A stretch of 63,386 nt of DNA, counting the filler, from Rhabdomonas costata (lineage: Eukaryota): NCBI GenBank assembly GCA_019059605.1. It is 48 parts of 48 records of this genome, joined end to end, with 100 filler letters (N's around TTAATTAATTAA, not from the genome) between each part and the next. Parts side by side here need not be neighbours in the genome. Positions count along the whole stretch, not along the records: positions 1 to 1,224 come from JAHMHO010022984.1; 47 more parts are not named here. The stretch is one strand, 5' to 3'. The position numbers and the translations under genes were made by a program. The notes under the pieces were generated by a model. The model made no database searches and was not told the DNA's origin. It saw nothing but the letters and a program-made list of their open reading frames with translations. The stretch's first letter is position 1, and each line of letters starts with the position of its first letter. Shown piece by piece: positions 1 through 58,429 of the stretch.

Positions 1-170
1 TTTTTATAAAGATTATTAAAATATGTAATTGCTTCATCATTATGATAAATGGTATATTCTTGATAATTATTTATTAAATCTGTAATTGTAGTATTTATAG
101 TATATTCATTTTCAAAATCATGTGTTCCAGCATATTTATCATAAAAAAAATGTGTATTACAACAATTCAT
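1..170 (-). CDS. Partial AT-rich hypothetical protein, divergent from the SWIB gene and running off the contig end
   Basis: Not in the ORF track. ATG at 170-168 reads MNCCNTHFFYDKYAGTHDFENEYTINTTITDLINNYQEYTIYHNDEAITYFNNLYK with no stop to position 1. Confidence 0.5.
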   Translation of the reverse strand, partial: MNCCNTHFFYDKYAGTHDFENEYTINTTITDLINNYQEYTIYHNDEAITYFNNLYK

Positions 171-523
171 ATTGTTTTATTAAAATACAAACTTAAATTT
201 ATTCATATCATTGAATGCACTGAAAAATAAAGTATATATATCTATATAAATTTATTTAATAAATATAATTTTAAAAATTTATTTATTATAATTTTTTTAT
301 TATTTATAACATAAAAATCATAATAGTTCTCGTAAAATAAGATTTTACTAATTTAAAAGTATTTTTATATTATTTTCTTTGAAAATAACATAAAAATAAT
401 TTATAATAAATTTTTATATTTACAATATATATTTTGCTTTAAAAAAAAATATATTTTTTTAATCTATACTCTCAACTTATATAGGCTTAAAGATTAGTAT
501 ATATAATTACAATATTGAAAAAC

Positions 524-1224
524 ATGTCAACATCAAAAAAAGACAAAAAGCAAACCAATACGCAAATGCCCGCTGACGATAAGAACACAACCAAAAATCA
601 AACAGCGAAATCTGCGGAACAGGTAAAAATGGCAACTAAAGAAACAGTTCAACCGACTGAAGCAGACGGTGATTCTGAAATATCAAATATTACAAATGAT
701 TCAACAGAAAATGAAGAAGATAAATTCAAAATTTCATTGAATTCATTAAAAACAAATTTAGCAAAAACAATAAAAGAATTACGAGAAACAAAGAATGCTT
801 TAAAAAAATTAGAAACAATGTACAATCAAGAAGTACATAAAGCATCAAAAAATTATAATAAGAAAAAGAAGACAAGAGATATAAAACCGACAGGTTTTGG
901 TAAATTAAAAGTTGTACCGGATAAATTAGCAAATCTAGTAGGAATTGAAAAAGGTTCAGAAATGTCAAGACCCGAATTCACAAAACAATTTTATAAATTA
1001 TTGGAAGAGCGAAAATTATATTATGAGAAGGATAAACGAGTATTACGTGTTGATAAAGAGATAAGCGAAATTTTAAATATACCAATGGAAGTAAATTCAT
1101 CAACATATTACAAAGATCCAGAAGGATTTAATTTTTATAATGTTCAAAAATATATAGCGAAATGTTATACAGAAGACGAAAAACTACAAAATAGTAAAGC
1201 AGATAAAACAAATAACCCAACACC
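524..1224 (+). CDS. SWIB/MDM2-domain protein, giant-virus (NCLDV) type; 3' partial
   Basis: Low-complexity N-terminus, a coiled coil and a basic patch, then KPTGFGKLKVVPDKLANLVGIEKGSEMSRPEFTKQFYKLLEERKL...DKRVLRVDKEISEIL...FNFYNVQKYIAKCY, the SWIB pattern. Intronless and very AT-rich. ATG at 524 is preferred over TTG at 515. Confidence 0.8.
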
Positions 1225-6250: not shown

Positions 6251-7976
6251 CTGTGAGGACCGGCGATCCACAACTACCAACCGCAGTTACCAATCGCCTC
6301 CAACCAAAACCAACCGTCGCTGACTGCCACCCGCCAACCTGCCGCGACCGGTCGGACCATCCAACAACAGCACAAAATAGCAAAACGAAAGGCGGTGCGT
6401 GGTACAAAATGCTGTAGAAACAACAACCCTTGCGTCAGGGTATATGCTCGGCGTCGTTTACCTAACAGTCTAGATGCAAGGGTTGTTGTTTCTACAGCAT
6501 TTCGGTTTGCANNNNNNNNNNNNNNNNNNNNNNNNNNNNNNNNNNNNNNNNNNNNTTAATTAATTAANNNNNNNNNNNNNNNNNNNNNNNNNNNNNNNNN
6601 NNNNNNNNNNNGGGTGTTGTGGTATGAATTCGTGCGAAGGGCTGAACATTGTACTTTTGCATGTGTGTCGCGTGGTGGCGGTGGTGGTGTCAAAAGTTTG
6701 AAGCACTGAGAAGCGTGCAACACTGCAAATTTTTTGGTGGCCGAGTTGGACTTTGCCTGAAGTGGGAAGACCCGAACAATAACATTTTCGGTCACGTTTT
6801 TCTTTCAAGAGCACATGCGAGTCTTTTTTTTTGGCGCACTGTATGAAAAAATTAACGCCAAACGGTCCCCGCTTCTGCCTCAAAAACCCATTGTGGTTAT
6901 TTCCGCAAGGTGGGTCAAGAAATCGGGGCCAGCCTTTACATGCATTTGGTTTGGCAAAAAGTAGGTAAGATATTACGGGCCACCTTAAAAGTAAGAGTTT
7001 TTGAGATGTACTTCAAAGGGGGCGTTTTTACCTTACAAGCCGTATTTCCCTGTGAAAAAGTCTGCTGTGGAATGTCAGCTAAAAGGTTGCATTTGAACGG
7101 CACGGTTGTTGGGAAAAGGTATCTTTGCAAACGGCGCACTGGAAAGGCGACATAGTGACATGTTTTTCTCTCATGGTGCGTTTTGAGGAATTTTTCAGCC
7201 CTTTCCGGACATATAAAACGACCTCATGAGTGTGATCACATCTCGCCTTTGAGGTTCCGTGGTCAGTTTTTGCAGAATTATAGTTTCGGCTGTCACTTGA
7301 CGCCCGCCGTATGACTGGCGTCACCTTGGAAGTAAGAGGTAAGTTTAGAAAGATCAAAGGAGGAGTTCGAAAACAGACAAAACCAAGATGCTCTGGGAAA
7401 CCAGTTTTCAACACCCGTTTTATCCCCCAGCTAGAAGCATTTCATGGAGTCAGAAAATCTGTGGCAGTCTGACACTGCGAAACGCCCCCGCCCTCCGATA
7501 CGGCTCAGAGGCGATACAATTGATTGGATGGAGATTGGGACTCTCAGCCTCACCTCATGGGGCAGCAGAGATCCGAGAAACGGGTCCAGCGCAGGGGCGC
7601 CGGGCCTGGAAGGCGTGTTGAGCTTGTCCTGAGCGGTGAGAAAACGTAGAGCAAGATTCTGACTGGTGTTTCAAGGAAGTATACATAGCGTTCGTTGAAG
7701 AAGACCACCGTTGCAGTTTGCGGAAGCCGCGAACCCATGACTGCAGGAATGAAGACGTTAATGGATAGCACAGATACGCAATGAAAACCAGTGGACGACG
7801 TGTCCCATTCCCCCTTTCGCCGCCCCACAACACNNNNNNNNNNNNNNNNNNNNNNNNNNNNNNNNNNNNNNNNNNNNTTAATTAATTAANNNNNNNNNNN
7901 NNNNNNNNNNNNNNNNNNNNNNNNNNNNNNNNNTGTGGGTGGGTGTGTGCTTCAATTGCTAACTTCTTCGGTTCAG

Positions 7977-8651: not shown

Positions 8652-9778
8652 GTGCGTGAGGTTCGTATCACGATGTTCGGTTACATCGCAGGGTTTTTTC
8701 AGAGGACCCAATTCCCCGGTAGTGCATGCTGCTTGCCTGTGAGCTTTCCTGTTGAATATCCACTGAGGTCCATTTCAATGTGTTGTACATGGGTGTTTGG
8801 TAGCGGTTCCATTGGCAACTGTTACCATCCCCCCACGCATCACACACGTGTATTTTGTGCCCTCCACCCTTGCCTTGTTCCTCTTACTGAATGCAATCTT
8901 CGCAAGGAGCACAAAAATCCACCACTCCTCCTCTCCAAGAAGCAATAATTGGGGCATCTATTCAACACCGACAACGCTCAACATTGGTTCTTTCGGGAAG
9001 ATTCTATCAAAGCGCTTCATCTTTTCTATCTTTTTTGAACATCGTAAGACTTATTGTCGGGGTGCATTTCGACCGTCACGTTCGCTTCATATTATCACAC
9101 AATTTCTATACCTTGAATTTAAGTTGAGTTAATGTCGCTCCCTCCCCCCCACCCACNNNNNNNNNNNNNNNNNNNNNNNNNNNNNNNNNNNNNNNNNNNN
9201 TTAATTAATTAANNNNNNNNNNNNNNNNNNNNNNNNNNNNNNNNNNNNNNNNNNNNGGTGTTTGGTGCTGACACCGAATCTTAAGGGTGTCCAAAATGTG
9301 TGAGTCCCGTCGTCTCTGCGGTATTGCTGCCACATTCCTCTACCACCTCCTGTTCTCACGCAGATCTTTGGAAGCTGGAGGCAAGAGATTGGATTCAGCT
9401 GTTTCCCTCCGGTACATCTTATCTGTTTCCTTCGAAAAATTTTGTTTTTTTCTGCTCCGGTTGCACGAGTAAATAGCACAGAAAACAGGTCCACGGGAGA
9501 CAAAAGGGTCAAAAGGGTCAAGCCAGCGTTCAAAGTTGCCAGAGGTTTGGCGCACAACAAATTGCTTCTGGCGGGTGGGCAAAGAATAGGTGAAAGAAAC
9601 AATGTGCTGCAGAAAAAGGTGGAAAACATCCCCACCCCGCCCGCGCCCGAACTGGTGTGTCTTAGGAACTCTGAGAGAGAGAGAAAGACAGATGAGAGCG
9701 AGAGAGAACGAGCGAGCCGCAACGATCCGGAAAGGGAAAAATGGACACGCACATGGATGGGCAGAGGGGTAGCACAAC

Positions 9779-10470
9779 CTCGCAGCACTTCTGCCCAGCG
9801 AGCAGGTCAATGAAGTGCTGCTTCGAGGTCCGCACGTTGGAGTTGGGGTTGTGGCACTCCGTGTTCACCATCATGATGGACATCACCAGCAGGTACAGCC
9901 CGTCCGTGTCAAAGGCCATGCTGTTGTCCTCGTTGAACTTCACCGCGAAGGGCTCCAGAAGCCTATAAAAAGCCGAAACCTCACTCTCCTCCACTGTCCC
10001 ACTGTCCACATCCTTGTTGTATGTGCTTTGGATAATGTAATGCCACTGTTTAATATTTGCAACGTGAGAGTGCGTGAGTGTATGTTTTGAGGACAGAAAA
10101 GCGCCGGCTGGCGCGGGGGTGCTTCCTCGGCCCTTCATCATCATTGCTGTGGCGTGGCGCACATGCCCCTTAACAACAACAGTTACTTGCATGTCTGCGC
10201 CATGCGGGTGCAGCAAGTTAGCAGTCGAGAGTGTTCTTCAACTTTTATTTGCCCACGTAAGCCTGGCGGCAAGTTAAAATAGGAAAAGGCAAGCCTCCAC
10301 GTACACCAAGCCTCCGCTTTGCGAGCAGTTCAGACCTCTGAACGATCTGACCCTCGCCTTGAATCCGGAAGGAGGTCATGAACTCACGCACCGCTGCGTC
10401 CACGTCGCGGTCCTTGAAATTGAACATCTTCAGGTACTGGTGGAAGACGTCCAGGTGAAACTCCTGCCCC
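9779..10470 (-). CDS. Sec7-domain ARF guanine-nucleotide exchange factor; exons about 10470-10336 and 9962-9779
   Basis: YLKMFNFKDRDVDAAVREFMTSFRIQGEGQIVQR|LLEPFA...DGLYLLVMSIMMVNTECHNPN corresponds to Sec7 motifs FRLPGEAQKIDR and LNTDLHN. Confidence 0.88.
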
Positions 10471-23700: not shown

Positions 23701-26700
23701 CACCCAACACNNNNNNNNNNNNNNNNNNNNNNNNNNNNNNNNNNNNNNNNNNNNTTAATTAATTAANNNNNNNNNNNNNNNNNNNNNNNNNNNNNNNNNN
23801 NNNNNNNNNNTGTTGTGGTTTTATTGCAATGAATGCATAATGCATGGAAGAGGATTGAGCGAGACGCTGAAGGCGATTTTCTATGCGTTTAATTGTGTCA
23901 GCGGCGCAATACCCATACCTCATACCGCTTTTGCGTGATTATGGGAGTAATGCTGCATATAACACTGGCAGGCCTTTAACTTGCACCTTCGGAGCTCACG
24001 TTTTCCTATGCTTCCACGTGTCTTTACCACTGTCAATCGTTCGTTTCCCCGATAATGACATATGTATGAGATATGAGCATATGTATGTGTGATCATTTTG
24101 TTTCGCCTTCTGCCCCTAGCTTTGGTTCTCCTCTTCGATGTTCGCGCTTTTTTAGCGTGATTCGAGAGAGAGAGAGATGGCGAAATGGGCGGACGTTGTC
24201 AATCAGGCAAAACGGTTCAATGACCGAGTAGTTTTCACCTTGGCAACCGGAATTGTTAACAACCACGCCAGCGGTAAGCCCACCAAGGGCAAGTTCCGGG
24301 TCCTCGCCCGGAAAGGCAAGGCCGGAGACCCCAACTGCTGCCGGCACGCCAGCGGCCCCCCCCAAAAAGCCTTTGTGCAGACACCGGCGGAAAAAAGGAC
24401 GTTCCACCCACCAAGGGTTCGGGTCAAAGCGTCATCTTCCAATCCAGTCTCCTTGTTTCCTTCGGTTGCCCGCGCGCCTCCTAGAAATTTTCGAAAAGGA
24501 CATCTCTTAGATCAGAGCGTTCCGGGGCATCGACCACGCAAATGGTCCGCGCCAATGTAATTGTTTTGACCGGGCGCCAGTTTTAGCACCATGTGCACAG
24601 CCCGTCCGGGCCCGGCGCGCCGTCCGGGCCCGGGTAGATTATTCAGCTTTAGTGGGGTGGACAAGGGAAAAGTGGAACGCCGCTCGTCGCCACTCCGCTT
24701 CTTGGAAAGAGAGAAAACCCAAGGCAAGATAAAGGAGGTCCGCGTGTCCAATTCCTCTTCGGGAAAAACAAAACTGCTGACACAAAGCGGCAATACGCAG
24801 GAGCAGAAGCACAAAAGGGCCGAATCCAAGAGAGGGAGGCCTCTAGGAGAGGCCAAGGCCCAAGCCCACGCGGTAGAAACAGGCCCCGCCGCGATAGCCA
24901 AGCGAGGAATACGACGAGAGAGGAAGAGCATTGGGAACAGAAGGAAAATGAACCCACCACGTCGGCGGCCTCCTCGCCGTGAGCGTTCGTTGGGTCGGGG
25001 CCAATCCACCGAACACCTTGTACCCCCAACCCCNNNNNNNNNNNNNNNNNNNNNNNNNNNNNNNNNNNNNNNNNNNNTTAATTAATTAANNNNNNNNNNN
25101 NNNNNNNNNNNNNNNNNNNNNNNNNNNNNNNNNGTGGGGGGGGTGCGAGGCCATCCACTATTGCATCCGGGCCACGGACTGCATCGTAAAGACACCTTTT
25201 TAGCAAAGACAACCTCAATAAAAGACCAAAAATGAGAAAACCCCGGTAAATACGAAAATGATCACAGAGTTTTGTCACACGTTCGATGAGAGATACAACT
25301 AATCTGCTCTGCTGCACAGGGTAAGATGATGTATGGGTCGACAATACAGTCCGGCGACGACCTGGAAGCGGACCAGTCCAGTCCGATGTCACGTTTTGCG
25401 TTTCATTTTGCAAGTCACCAAAGCATCAGATCCACATGAATAACACTGGAAGCAGTCATACCCCGAAAGTCGCTGAGCTGCCATTGACCAATCGGACCAA
25501 TCGGACCAATCGGAAAGTCTGAATTTTGCCGCCACCTCGCACATCCGCTCCTTTTTTATATTGGTGGGGTTGGGATGAGGATGAGGAGGACGCACGAACC
25601 AGCGGAAGCCTCCACCGATGGAAAGGCATGGGTCAATTACTTGTAATCCATTTGCTCTCTGTGACTGTTGTTCTCCTGCCCATGCATAATTCCGTTCCCA
25701 TCGCGCATGACCAGCTGCATGCTCCCTCCCCCTCTCATCCAGTCATGCCTGGCTAGCGACGGGTGTCTATAAAACAGCATTGTTGACGATACCCACCCAG
25801 AAGGATCGATTTCGGTTTATAGAAAGTATTATTTGCTCTGCGTTGCTTCTACAGACCGTCACGGCTTAATTTGGTTTTGGATGCCGGCTGCCGGAGCCGA
25901 TCAAAAGTCTTCCTGTGCTGATGCCATGAATAAAGACCTCTGAATATTTCCGTGTCTGTGAGAAGGGGCAAACGGTATAGCAGGTATTCACGAGCTCACT
26001 GTTGTCTCTGATACCCGCTGGCTCATAAATGGCAAACGCAGCAAGGGGCACTCAAGCATAAGAGTAAGCAGCTCAGTATAAACCCAATGGGATTGACCGA
26101 AACAAGCCCAAAAGAAAAAGCAGGATAAAGCGCACCAAATAAAGGCATCATGCGCCAACACAGGGCAAAGCCAAATGACAACCAAAAGGCACAAAAGGAA
26201 ACAAATCGCCACAAACAGACGAGAGAGAGATAGAGAAAGAGAGCGACAACGTGATGACAACGCAGAGGCCTTACCACTGAGGTGGTAAGGTTAGGTTAGG
26301 AGGCCAGAACACTCGCCCATCCCTTCATCCCCCACACCCCAACCACACCCACCACANNNNNNNNNNNNNNNNNNNNNNNNNNNNNNNNNNNNNNNNNNNN
26401 TTAATTAATTAANNNNNNNNNNNNNNNNNNNNNNNNNNNNNNNNNNNNNNNNNNNNGGTGGGTTGTGGCAGTTCTGGGTGTTTACATGATGTCAATTTGG
26501 GCTCCGCGTCAGCAAGTCAGGAGGTTGGGGTTTTTATTCTGTGCACGCGTACGCCGTAGGCTGTGCAGTGGGTCCTTAATGCTGCGACGGTCAGTTTTTT
26601 CCTCATGGATTGCTAATTTGTAACTGGTAAGGACGGGTCTTTTATTTAAATTTCTCGTTTCACGCGGTGATTTTTCTGCATTTTTCAATGTCAGTGCATA

Positions 26701-37972: not shown

Positions 37973-38470
37973 GTAAGTTTGGGGGTGCCAACAGCAGACT
38001 CGGCCTTCACCCCAACCCATGGAGGGAATGTATCAACCAGAACAGGGAAATCTCAGGAACAGCACTTCGAAAGCAAGTGGATTTTTGCGTGATGAAGGTG
38101 AGCAGGCTGGTCTACATACCGGGGCTGAGAAAATTGTGAAACTTGAAAGTTGCAAGTTGTTTTTTGCAAATAAATGCATATAATTGAAAATATTTTAAAT
38201 TACATTTAATTAATTTAATTTAATTAATTAATAATTACATTTAATAATGAATAACAAACAAAANNNNNNNNNNNNNNNNNNNNNNNNNNNNNNNNNNNNN
38301 NNNNNNNTTAATTAATTAANNNNNNNNNNNNNNNNNNNNNNNNNNNNNNNNNNNNNNNNNNNNTTTTGTGGGCCGCGTGGCAGTGTCTTAAGTATATAAG
38401 CAGATGGTTTGCATGTGCGTTCCTGTGTGTGGGAGTGATCAGGGCTCCCTATTCTTTTGCTCTGTTGCAG

Positions 38471-38622
38471 GGATCTGAAGGGGGCAAACATCTTGATCAC
38501 GCACAAGGGGGTCCTCAAGCTCGCAGACTTTGGCTCCTCGAAGCAGCTTTTCGACCTCTCCGACGCCAACCAGTACTCCCTCAGCGGCACCGCTCACTGG
38601 ATGGTGTTGCCCATTCCCTCAC

Positions 38623-38659
<37 letters not shown>

Positions 38660-39499
38660 CGGTGGGTTTCATTCGCTTGGTGTGCCCTCAAACGATCCAC
38701 ATCGTGGGCAGATTCTTAGAACGTATGTACCACTCTGCTCGACCGGCAGCCGACAGCCATGTCCAAGAATGGCATTGCGTTTGCCCTCTATATGTCGGCC
38801 CACTTCAGTTGCACCGTCGTTTTGATGCCCGGAATACAGGCATGGCAGTGTGGACCCATTCTTCTTTTGGCCGCATGCCTTTCATAGCACAACATCGCTT
38901 CCTTTCGAAGCACAATATCGCTGCGCTTGATGTTACATTAGCTCTCCAGATGTGAATACTATGCAGTACCCGCATCGTGCACATACACTTTGGTTGAGTG
39001 GGTGTTGTGTTCCCCACCAACTTTCCTGCTTAAACTTTGCGACCTGCCAGACCACCGCATGTGCAATGTTTTCAACCTTGTGCAAAGGTGTGGTGAGGCG
39101 CTTAGTGGTCAAATGTTTTCTCTGTTCTCCTCCCAGGCTCCGGAGGTCATCAAGCAGACTGGTCACGGTGCGACTCCCCCCCCCTTCCTCTTCTCATCAT
39201 CTGCATTCTATCTCGTTCGCTGTCTCCGATGGTTCGTGATCAGATCACAACAACGACCGCCGCATGAATCATTGCGGGAAAGGCTCATGCTGAAGTTGTT
39301 ACAGAAAATAAATACGGCTCGAAATGATCCAAAGGAAAGCATTCAAGATCGTGAATCAAAGATAATCGTGAGTTCAGGGTGGGTTTGGTATAACGTTTGG
39401 GTTCCAATGGTATGCGCATGGATCCGAATGAGCCCTTCCGGCTCTCCTCCAGGCACTCCGGCGGACATCTGGAGCCTGGGCTGCACCGTTGTAGAGATG
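38471..39499 (+). CDS. STE11/MEKK-type MAP3K kinase domain; exons 38471-38603, 39137-39167, 39453-39499
   Basis: RDLKGANIL...KLADFGSSK...GTAHWM|APEVIKQTGHG|TPADIWSLGCTVVEM. Confidence 0.93.
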
Positions 39500-47828: not shown

Positions 47829-49108
47829 ACGCCTTACCCACTGCACTCTTCCTTGTTTGCATCCTTCGCTTCCCTCTCTATCATCACACCGCCTCTCTTT
47901 TCACTTCTGGAATGCGCCTTGCCTCCCATACTCTTTTATAGCAACACCTACATGACTTCTCTCTTGTCACACATACGTGATCTGGGCCGTGACCATAGGA
48001 GGAACCAGCGGTTCTTTGACGACCAATCCCTCCTCACTTATTCGCTCTTGTGTTTTGCCTCTTCAGTTCTTCCCTTCTGGCACACTCTACTGCAATTGTC
48101 TAAACGGTTAAACTCCGCTCTTCTATCAGGTGAAACCCCAGTGACTCCTGTATTGGGTTTCTTCCACCACACGATGCGCGCTTCCCACTTTTCGCTCTTC
48201 ATTTCCTTCATAAACATCAGTATTCTCGGTCCCTCCAAAAATTGTCTGCTTCGTCCAGCGCATACATTGCAAATGACATTTTCTGAGCTACAGTAGTCCC
48301 ACTTCTGATCCAACTTCTCGCGCAATCTGGTTCATGAGTTCTTACCCTTGCTTAATGACTGCTACACAGTGCTCCAACCGCTTCTCCGAACTCCGCTCTA
48401 TGACACAAAACTCCTTGATAGCTTGATAGCATCTTGCAACGCCTCGCTCAACTGCATTCTTCCCCATGCCACGCCACTCTTCTCGACCACCACGCACTCA
48501 AATATTGATTGGTTAGTCAGCACACTCCTGTACACACTTGATCAGCACTCACTCTGACATAAGCCCTACGGCAACACGCTCTCGCCTCACCACGTCCACA
48601 ATACCCAAACATCCACCGCATAAAGCCTCATCTGAGGTAAAGAACTCCTCTGGGTATCATCTGCTTTGCCAGCATCACATGAAAAAGAGAAAACAAAGAA
48701 ATGACTCTCCGGCAAACTCTCAAGAAAGAAAGGGTATCAACGTCTCCGCCACGACATCTCTGGCTCGACTCTGAATACCATGCTGCTGCACATCTCCACT
48801 CTCTGGCTCCGTAACTTTTCAATCCATACTTCCCCCACCCCCNNNNNNNNNNNNNNNNNNNNNNNNNNNNNNNNNNNNNNNNNNNNTTAATTAATTAANN
48901 NNNNNNNNNNNNNNNNNNNNNNNNNNNNNNNNNNNNNNNNNNTGTGTTGGGTGGGTTTCGGTCTCGGATTCGGTTCCTCCGTTGCTTTGTTGTGCTGGGA
49001 AAGTAAGATGGGTGGGCTCTCTGGTGTGGAAGGGGTTCTTGGGTGGTAGAGTGATGCTTTCGTTGTGTGCGGTGTTTCCTCGACCCCTTGCCCTGACGGG
49101 GGCCCCAG

Positions 49109-49857
49109 GTGCTGCCCTGGCGGGGTTCCGAATGGTAGGGCGGTTCCTGGGCCGCGCTATTCAGGACGGACGGCTGGTCGACCTCCCGCTCTCCCCGGTG
49201 TTGCTCCACTTGCTCTGCCACGGCGACGAGCTGCAGCCTCTGCCCGGCGGGCCTGCGGGGGGCAGGAGGGGCCTAACGCCATCCTGGGGGCCGCGCGAGG
49301 TGGCCCAGGTGGATCCTCAACTGGCACTCTCCCTCCAGCGCCTGGCTGCGCTTGGTTTGATTTGCCCCCCAACACACACACATACGAACCAAACGAATGC
49401 ATGGATGTTGCATTGATGTTTTCGCCTCGTCGTCTTGTGCCCATGCTCGATCTTTGTGTTGCTTCTCTTCCCCACTGTCTTTTTGGGCCTCGTGGGCTGC
49501 ACTATAGTGGCGGTTTTCCCCACAATCACCTGCCATTATGCTCCCTTTCCCAAGGCTCTTTGACTTCATTCGAAGCCATTGTAGACATTATAGTGCAAGG
49601 GGAACTTCTGCAGTATTTCGGGCCGCGTTGGTTCAAAGCGATAACATTCCGCCTGGCCTCGCGAGCTGGTTGGGTGTCGGGGTAATTTTGGGGGATTTAC
49701 CTGACTTGTGGTTGCACAGGAAACCATTGAACTCGGTGGATAGCAGCATTTGTTATTGTGGGATCGGTATTTTGCAGGTGGATCTCCGAAGAAATCCGCT
49801 GTGGCAGCTCGAGAACTGGCGGAAATGCAGCTGGACTTCACCCTTCCGGGCTACCCG
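49109..49857 (+). CDS. HECT E3 ubiquitin ligase, TRIP12/UFD4-like; exons 49109-49354 and 49778-49857
   Basis: FRMVGRFLGRAIQDGRLVDLPLS...VAQVDPQLALSLQRL|...ELAEMQLDFTLPGYP. Confidence 0.88.
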
Positions 49858-55340: not shown

Positions 55341-55555
55341 CCGGCCCGGGAGCCGCTCCTTCTCCGGTCACCGTCACCGCAGATATCCCACTTACGACTC
55401 TTGACGGTGTACTCACAGCTCGACACGTCTTTTCAAAGTGCATGTGCTGTCGTNNNNNNNNNNNNNNNNNNNNNNNNNNNNNNNNNNNNNNNNNNNNTTA
55501 ATTAATTAANNNNNNNNNNNNNNNNNNNNNNNNNNNNNNNNNNNNNNNNNNNNAT

Positions 55556-55563
55556 AAAATTGA
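55556..55563 (+). promoter_or_regulatory. AAAATTGA Mimiviridae early-promoter motif
   Basis: Exact octamer about 54 nt upstream of the ATG at 55617; it overlaps the 16-bp palindrome AATTGAAATTTCAATT. Confidence 0.7.
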
Positions 55564-55616
55564 AATTTCAATTGTTTATGATATAAAATAAAGAGATTAA
55601 ATATTTTAAGTTACAA

Positions 55617-55770
55617 ATGTCTAAAATTACAAATGATCGAGATCTTAAGAAATTATTTCATTCTATTCATGATTATATTCGAAATCATGAAGCTTATTAT
55701 GGAATGACCGCCTTAAAGATATTTAATGTTATATATGCTTTAAAATTACTTGATCCATTAATTACAGATA
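55617..55770 (+). CDS. N-terminus of an HsdM-like / fused type I-IIG N6-adenine methyltransferase, truncated by an inversion junction
   Basis: MSKITNDRDLKKLFHSIHDYIRNHEAYYGMTALKIFNVIYALKLLD fits the HsdM N-terminal helical pattern. From 55771 the sequence is the reverse complement of 55554-55579. Confidence 0.6.
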
Positions 55771-55794
55771 ATAAACAATTGAAATTTCAATTTT

Positions 55795-55825
55795 ATTTAT
55801 TTAAAAATATATTTTTTAAATAAAT
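55795..55825 (-). terminator. 13-bp AT hairpin (ATTTATTTAAAAA-TATAT-TTTTTAAATAAAT), Mimivirus hairpin-rule-like polyadenylation signal
   Basis: Perfect 13-bp stem with a 5-nt loop, 17 nt past the stop at 55843. Confidence 0.55.
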
Positions 55826-55842
55826 ATCTTTTTAATTATTAT

Positions 55843-56765
55843 TTATTGTGTCATTATCAATTTAAGAAGTAAAGAATCATATTCTTCTCCAATTTTTATA
55901 ATTTGTTCTTTAGTTCTGTAAATATAATCAAAACTAAATTCTAATTTATCAATTACATCTTTGTTTTTTGGTATATTTAATTTCAATTCTTCTGGATTTG
56001 TATTTGATATTTCTTTTAGTTTAAAAAGCATCATAATGTAATAAAAATAATGAGTATTTATCTCGTTATTGTTTTTTAATACAAATATATGATCACTTGG
56101 ATATATTTCACCATCTGTTTCATTTTTGGTAATTAAAATATGTTGTTCATCAAATACAAAATGATAAATATATTCAGTATTATCTTCAGTGTCATATTTA
56201 AATATTTTTTTTTATCGTCTGATATTTTATTTTTATCATTTTTTATGTATTTACATATATCTTTTAATTCAATTTCATAACATTCTTCTTTGTTTAAATA
56301 AATATTTTTTATTTTTGTTTGTAATGAATTTTCTAAATAAACTAATAATTGTTTCATATGTTTAACTACATCTTTTCGTAATGTTATATTGGTCATTACA
56401 TCACATAATTTTTCATTACTTACCGGTACTGGAATTTGATATTGTTTAATATTTTCGTCACTTATACTATTTGTTGTTGAACTGTAACATTTTTTATAAA
56501 AATCACTCCAATTCATTTTTATCATATAATAAATGTACTTAGTAAGAATATAATTATTTGTTGTTATTACATGATTTGTACATACAGTTGAAAAATCATC
56601 GTCTAAAAATACATATTCACTTTCAGAATGTCCGATTATAATACATAATTTTCCTCTAATATCTGCACTATTACATTTTAATATTTTTTGATCAGATGAA
56701 TAAAATTTAGATGTTCCATCTTCTGAAGAAAATGAATCTAATCTTTTACTTTTTGGTAAAAATTC
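55843..56765 (-). pseudogene. Type I R-M specificity (HsdS-like, two TRDs) region with two frameshifts; 5' partial; giant-virus type
   Basis: TRD1 FLPKSKR..DGTSKFYSS..CIIIG..TKYIYY..SISDENIKQYQIPVP, a coiled spacer, EIELKDICKY, then TRD2 pieces in shifted frames (FDEQHILITKN; GEIYPSDHIFVLK..INTHYFYY..LKLNIPKNKDVI). Confidence 0.7.
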
Positions 56766-57402
56766 CACAACCCCCNNNNNNNNNNNNNNNNNNNNNNNNN
56801 NNNNNNNNNNNNNNNNNNNTTAATTAATTAANNNNNNNNNNNNNNNNNNNNNNNNNNNNNNNNNNNNNNNNNNNNCTTCCTCGGGATACTAACACTGGCA
56901 TAAGGGTGTGCGTATGATTGTGCACCTAGATTAAAGTTCTGCTCAACAGGTCGTCTTGACTATAATGAGCTCCCACTGCTGAACGCGTATACGAAGAATT
57001 GGAGTTGGCTACGCTTGGGAGTGATATAAAGACTGAAGAAGGGGCACCTTTGTTGGCTTTTCCATTCACGAGGCAGAACAAGAGGAAAGGTGGTGAGGGG
57101 AGGGGAGGTGGTGAATTGATGTGAAATAAACCAACCCCGTAATTTCACATTCACATTTGATTTGGGTGCATGCGAGATATACGATCTGAATACGGAGTTT
57201 CTGGGGTTCTGCGGTTCTAGATCTGTACTGAGAAGAAGTTGTTTTGTTGTGTTTGGTGGGTGGATGGTTACCTGGCATTGGCATATACCACTACTTACTT
57301 AAGCACACAAGTCAGGCGCCACCGAGTCACTCCATGGTGCAGCAGCCGCACTTGAAAGAGGAGGGGAGGAGGGGGGGCAGAGTGGGGGAGAGGGATGCAC
57401 AC

Positions 57403-57891
57403 GGATGCAGCTGCTGCACGTGCGGCACCGCGGCGTCGTTAGAACCCTGGGGCCCCAAAAGAACGTGAAAGACCTGTCCCGTGCCCTCCGTGCCAACCCG
57501 AGAGACAACAGAGGCGGTCAGCAGACCTGAGTTTGAAAGCCAACAAAAACAGGAATGAGCCAAGAAAACAGGTAGGGCGGATCCAAAAAAAAAAGTGTTC
57601 CAAACCTCAAACCTCCCACCGCCCACCTCTCCATCCATATCGCTGAATTGATTGCTACTTCGCCTTTAATAGACTCGGAGGTTCTTCTGCACGCGTTCTC
57701 CAAATCACAACGGTGCGTGAGCACACAACAGTCGGAAATGAAAACGGGAACAACGCTGTTAGTGTTATTGCTGGCTTCCCGCGTGCGCATAGCTCACCGG
57801 AGATTGTGTCCACGACCATCACCCGCACGTCGGAGTGAATGTTGGCGTACGCGAGCAGCTGCGAAAGCGAATCGGAGCGCAGCCCGAGGAC
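57403..57891 (-). CDS. TRMT6: tRNA m1A58 methyltransferase non-catalytic subunit TRM6/GCD10; exons 57891-57798 and 57526 to about 57403
   Basis: VLGLRSDSLSQLLAYANIHSDVRVMVVDTISG|LLTASVVSRVG. Confidence 0.85.
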
Positions 57892-58429
57892 CTGCAAAGA
57901 GTTAGCCAAGACCGAAAATGGGGGGTACAGAAGCTCACCTATACCCCACCTAGGTCCACGACAACCAGCCCCAGCAGCCTGAAGCTAAGGGACCCTCGTT
58001 CAAATACGTTTGTCACAGCAACGGCAAAGGTCCCAGGCTCGACGCAAAGTCACTGACGTTCGGCCTTCACATTACTCGCGGTAAATGACCACACACCNNN
58101 NNNNNNNNNNNNNNNNNNNNNNNNNNNNNNNNNNNNNNNNNTTAATTAATTAANNNNNNNNNNNNNNNNNNNNNNNNNNNNNNNNNNNNNNNNNNNNGTT
58201 TGTGGCTGCCGTTTGATGGAGAAGACTCAAGTAGTTCGGCACGTGGTTCGTTAGTGTGGGAGTTCTTTGAAATTCTCCTCTTGTGGACACAAACAATTTC
58301 ACATGGCGAACATATACGGGAGTCTGGAGTCAAGCAGTGTGGGCACAGGGCTTCTTAGTGGGGATTTAGGGTGGACCCTTCGGGTGGGTAAAGACTGTGC
58401 AAACTATTTGGCGGAGCGTGACACTGCAC

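Follow-up and report, generated by a model that had tools for sequence, protein, structure and literature searches.

Two AT-rich contigs in a Rhabdomonas costata assembly as probable genome fragments of an uncultured giant virus with a SWIB/MDM2 gene

The DNA analysed here, called the window in what follows, is a stretch of 63,386 bases from an assembly of Rhabdomonas costata (GCA_019059605.1), composed of 48 contigs of 1218-1224 nucleotides each which are separated by N...TTAATTAATTAA...N spacers. The first contig (1-1224) carries two divergent intronless open reading frames (ORFs) with a spacer of 353 nucleotides between them, one of which encodes a small protein with a SWIB/MDM2 domain. Together with a second contig at 55554-56775, it is read as probable giant virus DNA. 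The features of the first contig are the following.

1..1224, no strand: AT-rich contig, read as an Imitervirales-like giant virus genome fragment from its composition and gene identity
3..170, minus strand: upstream gene, first 56 codons, probable N-terminus of an SNF2/RING ATPase (ORF and profile), the rest lying beyond the contig start
171..523, no strand: divergent intergenic spacer of 353 nucleotides, presumed bidirectional promoter region (GC 0.17, 0.105 and 0.22 in overlapping 200-nucleotide bins)
524..1222, plus strand: SWIB/MDM2-domain gene of 233 codons (ORF, Pfam, model), conserved part complete, 3' end cut at the contig end
707..862, plus strand: long, coiled-coil-like helix, residues 62-113 (AlphaFold2 secondary structure)
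860..871, plus strand: KKKK basic patch, residues 113-116, then a conserved PTGFGK motif; K113 and K114 are conserved in the alignment
884..1201, plus strand: SWIB/MDM2 fold (about residues 121-203) and C-terminal helix (204-226), as delimited by Pfam (131-185), VIA-align (116-223) and model confidence of 92-95
1214..1224, no strand: A/C-only tail of 11 nucleotides, AACCCAACACC, a non-template remnant of a degenerate G/T primer

The guanine and cytosine content (GC) of contig 1-1224 is 0.221 and ranges from 0.105 to 0.295 in 200-nucleotide bins, which makes it AT-rich over its whole length. Elsewhere in the window, GC is 0.200 in contig 55554-56775, 0.337 in contig 1325-2547 and 0.454-0.587 in the remaining 45. 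An earlier note on this DNA had described the first contig as AT-rich and intronless with two divergent ORFs, and both the GC value and the ORF map confirm it.

Pfam places a SWIB domain (PF02201) at residues 131-185 of ORF 524-1222 (27.7 bits against a cut-off of 25, E-value 2.2e-6), and relatives of the protein score 28.6, 34.5 and 40.5 bits. An AlphaFold2 model, computed from an input alignment of 16 sequences, has a mean predicted local distance difference test score (pLDDT) of 73.9, with values of 92-95 across the SWIB domain, and begins the protein with a disordered N-terminus, followed by a helix of 52 residues (62-113) and then by a compact domain, after which comes a C-terminal helix. 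When the model was compared with 48,161 PDB representatives by VIA-align, ranks 1 to 10 were all occupied by SWIB/MDM2 folds (Z 9.5-6.9), including eIF2D (9.5), BAF60 (9.1), Rsc6 (8.6) and MDM2/MDMX (about 7), and the rows after them by generic coiled coils with Z of 6.1 or less; the long helix resembles dimeric coiled coils at Z of about 5.8-6.1. The top rows returned by Foldseek, at E-values of 9.8e-3 and above, are likewise BAF60, plant SWIB domains, Rsc6 and MDM2. The layout proposed beforehand, a SWIB domain after a coiled coil and a basic patch, is supported by Pfam, the model and VIA-align. The protein is devoid of a catalytic motif.

Of the 202 candidates from a word-indexed protein search with the SWIB ORF, 15 are relatives at E<=0.01. 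The six best share 61-71% identity over 65-85% of the query and are located on contigs of up to 490,192 bp; two relatives at about 70%, P0003 and P0001, are encoded on contigs of 490 kb and 47 kb, and one close relative bears the JGI label "RSC6". Metagenomes of JGI and ENA contributed 19 relatives, the best at 46% identity on a contig of 174,505 bp. A phmmer scan of 1.84 billion representatives retrieved 797 clusters at E<=1e-3, of which 249 reach <=1e-10 and 10 reach <=1e-30; almost without exception, they are stand-alone proteins of 150-330 residues aligned across both helix and domain. In BFVD, a library of viral structures, 17 matches were registered at E<=0.001, and all the named ones are Nucleocytoviricota. 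The top 13 rows are named members of this group and the top five are Klosneuvirinae, namely Catovirus, Hyperionvirus, Terrestrivirus, Yasminevirus and Bodo saltans virus, aligned over the whole length at 28-34% identity (E-values 8e-15 to 2e-11). Further matches comprise Cafeteria roenbergensis virus, a mimivirus, Faunusvirus, Heterosigma akashiwo virus, marseilleviruses, iridoviruses and Tetraselmis virus. Moreover, the four nearest clusters of the ESM Atlas are 96-100% Viruses, most commonly Nucleocytoviricota. In IMG/VR, the single-protein scan with the SWIB protein gave no match and an alignment query was needed, which recovered four distant relatives at 31-32% identity, three of them named GVMAG.

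In a tree of 34 rows, from which 2 duplicate rows were dropped, the window protein groups with relatives P0001-P0009 and L006/L007 (92/83, moderate support), next to L003/L009; the tree has no cellular outgroup, and for this reason it cannot test a viral against a cellular origin. The metagenomic relatives are far closer than the Klosneuvirinae, which points to a lineage with no named representative in the libraries searched. One predicted protein of the family, P0053 (914 residues), contains a GTPase, a Prim-Pol and a SWIB family member. It had been considered as an SNF2-SWIB fusion, a candidate rejected on those three domains, and it is probably a merged gene call or the product of a genome with a reassigned stop codon. 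With regard to the earlier note, BFVD, the Atlas and phmmer agree with its statement that Nucleocytoviricota commonly carry stand-alone SWIB genes arranged in this way, and its identification of contig 1-1224 as giant-virus-like, of a Mimiviridae or klosneuvirus kind, is borne out by the Klosneuvirinae at the top of the named structural relatives. The eukaryotic or chlamydial best matches that it had named as the contrary outcome did not occur, the nearest named relatives being viral.

The same results bear on a cellular origin of the contigs, in an AT-rich eukaryote, an organelle or a SWIB-bearing bacterium such as a chlamydia. SWIB domains do occur in eukaryotes and chlamydiae, and the chlamydial SWIB proteins and topoisomerase I-SWI fusions (NCBIfam NF004966) resemble the window protein as cases of the domain outside eukaryotes; the ORF even matches the chlamydial model weakly (19.2 bits, E-value 2.5e-4). 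However, this score is far under the model cut-off of 868, which leaves the protein outside that family, and the GC and gene context of the window contig are viral. Two family-specific patterns, run against 185,579 prokaryotic species genomes, matched 41 times, and none of these matches (0/41) encodes a relative. All named structural relatives and nearly all members of the nearest Atlas clusters are viral, the contigs of the relatives are 90-93% coding with D5 primase, an Rpb1 fragment and TFIIB, and Rfam finds zero families over the whole window, hence neither ribosomal nor transfer RNA. A cellular origin is thus largely refuted and can be considered extremely improbable.

The gene neighbourhood of the SWIB relatives is also informative. 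The flanks in the loci of relatives have a GC of 0.18-0.27 and are 84-93% coding, with values of 0.22-0.27 and 90-93% in L005, L011 and L014 (metagenome) and L003 (viral). In L005 and L014, the gene immediately upstream of SWIB is divergently oriented and encodes an SNF2 ATPase with a RING finger between its helicase lobes. L003 and L011 also have this ATPase, separated from SWIB by a single gene, and in all four loci a DUF7197 gene lies behind it. Other genes near SWIB in the loci of relatives encode Hsp70, DnaJ, D5 primase-helicase, an Rpb1 fragment, TFIIB, XPG/FEN1 and Bro-N. The upstream ORF of the window contig (3-170, minus strand) scores 15.9 bits against a profile made of the first 110 residues of four verified SNF2/RING proteins, a value reached by none of 2000 shuffles (maximum 11.9). 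The divergent ORF of L012 attains 41.5 bits with the same profile, and among all loci it is matched by ORF 3-170 in tblastn with an E-value of 1e-5. From the sequence, ORF 3-170 is the probable N-terminus of an SNF2 ATPase with a RING insertion, and the order of an SNF2/RING gene beside a SWIB gene would be weakly shared between the window and giant-virus contigs.

In the distant clade at 31-32% identity, the upstream neighbour of SWIB is a ubiquitin-activating E1 enzyme (L001, L002, L004, L021 and L022), and in L010 it is a nucleotidyl transferase. Both divergent neighbours, E1 and the RING-bearing SNF2 ATPase of L005, L014, L003 and L011, belong to or touch the ubiquitin system. MDM2 is a protein which joins a SWIB domain to a RING. 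The pairing of SWIB with SNF2/RING in one clade and with E1 in another constitutes a small lead on the role of SWIB in viruses. As for the spacer 171-523, presumed to act as a bidirectional promoter region, the spacers of L005, L012 and L014 share no consistent motif. The early-promoter octamer of mimivirids is AAAATTGA. Its 5 matches in the window are no enrichment over the 4.5 expected, and the 2 copies in contig 55554-56775 are a number equalled in 145 of 2000 shuffles; being absent from the spacer and at chance level in its counts, it was dropped as promoter evidence.

The second AT-rich contig holds a different gene family, and its features are these.

55554..56775, no strand: AT-rich contig with GC 0.200, assigned to the same viral kind as the first by GC and methyltransferase family
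55846..56774, minus strand: C-terminal third of a fused N6-adenine methyltransferase and specificity-domain gene, colinear with residues 610-933 of relative P0017 (tblastn map)
55617..55823, plus strand: ORF of 68 codons resembling the N-terminal region of the methyltransferase family (about residues 95-150) and stopping early (79 loci matched, best E-value 3e-13)
56765..56775, no strand: A/C-only, primer-derived tail of 11 nucleotides (end run)

ORF 55846-56774 matches Methylase_S (PF01420) with 31.2 bits against a cut-off of 22, and its relatives are proteins of 918-1125 residues in which an N6-adenine methyltransferase is fused to two specificity domains, encoded on contigs of up to 312 kb; one of them is labelled by UniRef as viral metagenome. 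Although a single-protein IMG/VR scan with the fragment gave no match and an alignment query was needed, the latter found 126 relatives, and 47 of the 79 loci kept are named GVMAG. One viral record of 187 kb contains members of both the methyltransferase/specificity and the SWIB families; the capsid family (PF04451) had no match in that record, but its control also matched nowhere. The Methylase_S match and the GVMAG relatives sustain the view, already put forward in the earlier note, that this contig comes from the same kind of giant virus.

The fused proteins from giant-virus bins (P0017-P0021; L024-L102) share 41-56% identity with ORF 55846-56774 over their middle and C-terminal parts. The window gene differs from them in that it comprises the last third only, with one frame change and a truncated second N-terminus alongside. 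The catalytic motif of N6_Mtase, NPPYGGD, is present in the relatives, and the corresponding part of the window gene lies beyond the contig end. Nine consecutive T (56205-56213) lie at or next to the frame change, and such a run is a typical slippage site for amplification or sequencing error. On sequence resemblance, ORF 55617-55823 is read as a probable remnant of a second methyltransferase copy. It is flanked by the two copies of a perfect 16-nucleotide palindrome, AATTGAAATTTCAATT (55558-55573 and 55777-55792), which both AAAATTGA matches of the contig overlap (55556-55563 on the plus and 55787-55794 on the minus strand); the palindrome might form a hairpin that signals the end of transcripts, or it might belong to a small repeat element. 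Furthermore, a convergent ResIII helicase-like gene follows the fused gene in L101 (2078-7128) and L024 (3317-8370), and in L026 (9995-22553) a ResIII/DEAD/T5orf172 gene is found 7.5 kb from it. The methyltransferase/specificity and ResIII genes may form a restriction-modification module of type I- or ISP-like kind.

Contigs 1-1224 and 55554-56775 are hence best explained as genome fragments of an uncultured Imitervirales giant virus, Mimiviridae-like and with the Klosneuvirinae as its nearest named kin, whose DNA was present at the G/T-primer amplification of the DNA of a eukaryotic cell. Contig 1-1224 would cover a divergent SNF2/RING-SWIB gene pair, and the SWIB protein would be a non-catalytic adaptor. 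The probability given to this reading as a whole is about 0.82.

Several results weigh against it. The Pfam score of the SWIB domain barely clears its cut-off (27.7 against 25 bits), Foldseek finds nothing in the PDB at E<=0.001 with the SWIB model (best 9.8e-3), and the profile of the 16-member family retrieves no solved SWIB chain from the PDB at E<=1, its rows being coiled-coil noise with E-values of 0.28 and above. The closest SWIB relatives, those at 60-71% identity, carry no taxon name, and none of the hallmark genes (capsid, PolB, A32, VLTF3) is present on either of the 1.2-kb AT-rich contigs. With respect to the gene pair, the likeness of ORF 3-170 to SNF2/RING N-termini is weak at 15.9 bits and a BLASTP E-value of 0.007 to L003; BLASTP gives no match to the SNF2/RING protein of L011, and a word-based search for longer relatives of the 56-residue ORF returned none. 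Since the pairwise matches are weak and longer relatives are missing, the SNF2/RING identity is called probable only. In addition, the different neighbours found in other clades limit the SNF2-SWIB pairing to one clade, no exact copy of AAAATTGA occurs in spacer 171-523 or anywhere in contig 1-1224, and a functional partnership between SWIB and SNF2/RING is something that we only infer.

The contig ends provide information on how the DNA was prepared. Runs of at least 8 A/C-only letters at the 3' end characterise 31 of the 48 contigs and runs of at least 8 G/T-only letters at the 5' end 29 of the 48, the opposite letters being found at the ends of 0/48; internally, G/T-only 8-mers occupy 1.2% of positions. 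Examples of such G/T or A/C contig ends, about 10 nucleotides long, are seen at 1325-1338, 7934-7949 and 25134-25145. A whole-genome-amplification primer, TGTGTTGGGTGTGTTTGGKKKKKKKKKKNN, in which ten G/T positions come after a constant part, is quoted in PMC10781638. The tails are what primer trimming left of a degenerate G/T amplification primer. As the tail is non-template, the last SWIB codons (NPT) may be artificial. The earlier note had remarked that contig 1-1224 shares an A/C-only tail with host contigs: the tail is real and indeed belongs to most contigs, but as a biological link it fails, being a primer artefact. Tails common to AT-rich and other contigs indicate the same amplification chemistry and nothing on biology. 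They need to be trimmed, since a reader could take them for telomeres or for sequence shared with the host.

The rest of the window is composed of two kinds of DNA. In the 45 contigs of about 50% GC, long ORFs are rare, and only 4 of the 116 stop-to-stop ORFs of at least 100 codons match Pfam at E<=1e-4, all as exon-sized pieces of Sec7, protein kinase, HECT and Gcd10p (9665-10237, 38439-38822, 48943-49413, 57658-57984). These contigs look like intron-bearing, gene-poor eukaryotic nuclear DNA. Contig 1325-2547 (GC 0.34) is instead a single open frame for a distant GlgA-like GT5 glycosyltransferase, which scores 104 bits against a TIGR02095 cut-off of 328; the ESM Atlas clusters nearest to it are bacterial, and searches of the prokaryotic and viral collections turned up no close relative. 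It probably represents a third, non-host source, and the library is consequently not pure host DNA.

This mixture matters for the relation between the virus and the co-amplified cell, for which incidental explanations are ranked above true infection and integration lowest. The viral DNA would be incidental if it came from an ingested or adhering virion, from ingested infected prey, from a co-sorted particle or from cross-sample carry-over, the true host being another organism. Both genes have widespread relatives in environmental metagenomes, the foreign-looking GlgA-like contig lies in the same window, and single-cell studies of protists describe mixed microbial and viral associations (PMC12644861). 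The sole counter-point is that 2 of the 48 contigs are viral, which is above trace. An incidental presence is judged a little likelier than not.

That same proportion speaks for an active infection of the co-amplified eukaryote, a euglenid according to the earlier note, in which the DNA would derive from replicating genomes or a virus factory. Both viral contigs bear the primer tails of the eukaryotic contigs and so underwent the same amplification chemistry, and a virus of another euglenozoan, Bodo saltans virus, is among the closest named relatives (PMC8061765). On the other hand, the contigs are short amplicons and amplification bias deprives contig counts of quantitative meaning; at least one more contig (1325-2547) looks foreign, and the Pfam matches in the DNA of about 50% GC are all to generic eukaryotic domains. 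Infection is therefore considered unlikely.

Integration, with the contigs as pieces of a giant endogenous viral element in the chromosomes of the eukaryote, is more doubtful still. The frame change of the methyltransferase gene and its truncated second copy could be signs of erosion, and eroded elements of this sort are described in Euglena gracilis (PMC12455990), but those belong to the Asfuvirales and not to the Imitervirales. Moreover, both contigs remain AT-rich (GC 0.105-0.295) to their ends, with no flank or junction of about 50% GC within the 1.2 kb of each, the SWIB ORF and its conserved residues are intact, and the frame change coincides with a typical error site. It is accordingly held to be very improbable.

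The most far-reaching reading is that a euglenid-like protist supports the replication of a klosneuvirus-like virus from the Mimiviridae, which would bring its own SNF2/RING and SWIB module on one divergent promoter; this too is regarded as a long shot. If it were true, it would be the first pairing of Imitervirales with a euglenid, beside Bodo saltans virus and the Asfuvirales elements, and any real association would add a new host lineage in Euglenozoa for mimivirus-like viruses. According to a 2021 review, viruses of euglenids had yet to be verified by experiment, and no DNA virus of kinetoplastids other than Bodo saltans virus was documented (PMC8061765). The host link, which the earlier note did not know to be well described, is less unexplored than it supposed, as a 2025 paper presents eroded giant endogenous viral elements of Asfuvirales in Euglena gracilis (PMC12455990). 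Single-cell genomics, in the accounts of PMC6789865 and PMC12644861, already links giant viruses to choanoflagellates, ciliates and amoebae. Neither the frequency of SWIB genes in giant viruses nor the presence of giant-virus DNA in single-cell protist data is new. For users of the assembly, the low-GC contigs are viral and perhaps partly bacterial, and should be binned apart before their genes are credited to the host.

Within the reading as an Imitervirales-like virus, the following mechanism is proposed. Viral DNA would have accompanied that of a eukaryotic cell through an amplification primed by degenerate G/T oligonucleotides, and contig 1-1224 would retain the divergent promoter region and the 5' ends of a conserved pair, which encodes an SNF2/RING ATPase and a small SWIB/MDM2 protein. 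The latter may work in the virus factory as a non-catalytic adaptor, either in viral transcription or in the packaging of DNA: its helix would mediate self-association or pairing with a partner, its lysine patch could contact DNA or act as a nuclear-localisation signal, and its SWIB domain would dock a protein ligand. In one viral clade the two genes diverge from a shared spacer, which points to co-regulation and perhaps to a partnership; the partner may be the adjacent ATPase. By analogy, an adaptor of the SNF2/RING ATPase is a possible role for the protein, although one rated a little below even. Published annotations go in a similar direction. TetV_204 (SWIB/MDM2) of Tetraselmis virus 1 is annotated as a transcription activator among early-expressed transcription genes (PMC12126595), and in haptophyte viruses SWIB is listed under chromatin remodelling (PMC11953307). 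Viral SWIB genes are called transcription activators or chromatin-remodelling candidates in the relevant passages of three papers, which report no functional assay (PMC12126595, PMC11953307, PMC12085832).

Among known systems, the SWIB proteins of Klosneuvirinae (A0A1V0SBB3 of Catovirus CTV1, A0A3G5AB72 of Hyperionvirus, A0A3G4ZQ94 of Terrestrivirus, A0A5K0U999 of Yasminevirus and A0A2H4UU69 of Bodo saltans virus) are like the window protein over 197-247 aligned columns. They are stand-alone proteins of about 200-316 residues whose helix, basic patch and SWIB domain are arranged as they are here, but differ in sharing just 28-34% identity with it, against 60-71% for the metagenomic relatives. 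The same stand-alone domain is found in Cafeteria roenbergensis virus (E3T5E5), Acanthamoeba polyphaga mimivirus Kroon (A0A0G2YAY0), Tetraselmis virus 1 (TetV_204), Heterosigma akashiwo virus 01, marseilleviruses and iridoviruses; BFVD rows past the top five, at E<=0.001, are 16-25% identical to the window protein, except for a Harvfovirus fragment at 32%.

In cellular remodellers, BAF60, Rsc6 and Snf12 are the SWIB subunits which serve SNF2 ATPases. The viral protein differs from them in several respects: it has no sequence similarity to any solved SWIB chain (profile, E<=1) and so has only the fold in common with them, its helix precedes the SWIB domain, it is half their size, and the neighbouring ATPase is RING-bearing and not of the Snf2/Brg1 type. 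No SWI3 or SNF5 partners are known for the viral system. The likeness to human BAF60/SMARCD (6lth_P, Z 9.1), yeast Rsc6 (6k15_I, 8.6) and Snf12 (6uxv_H, 7.5) consists of the SWIB fold with long helices and of an SNF2-family ATPase gene which, in the viral genomes, stands beside the SWIB gene, suggesting an analogous role as adaptor.

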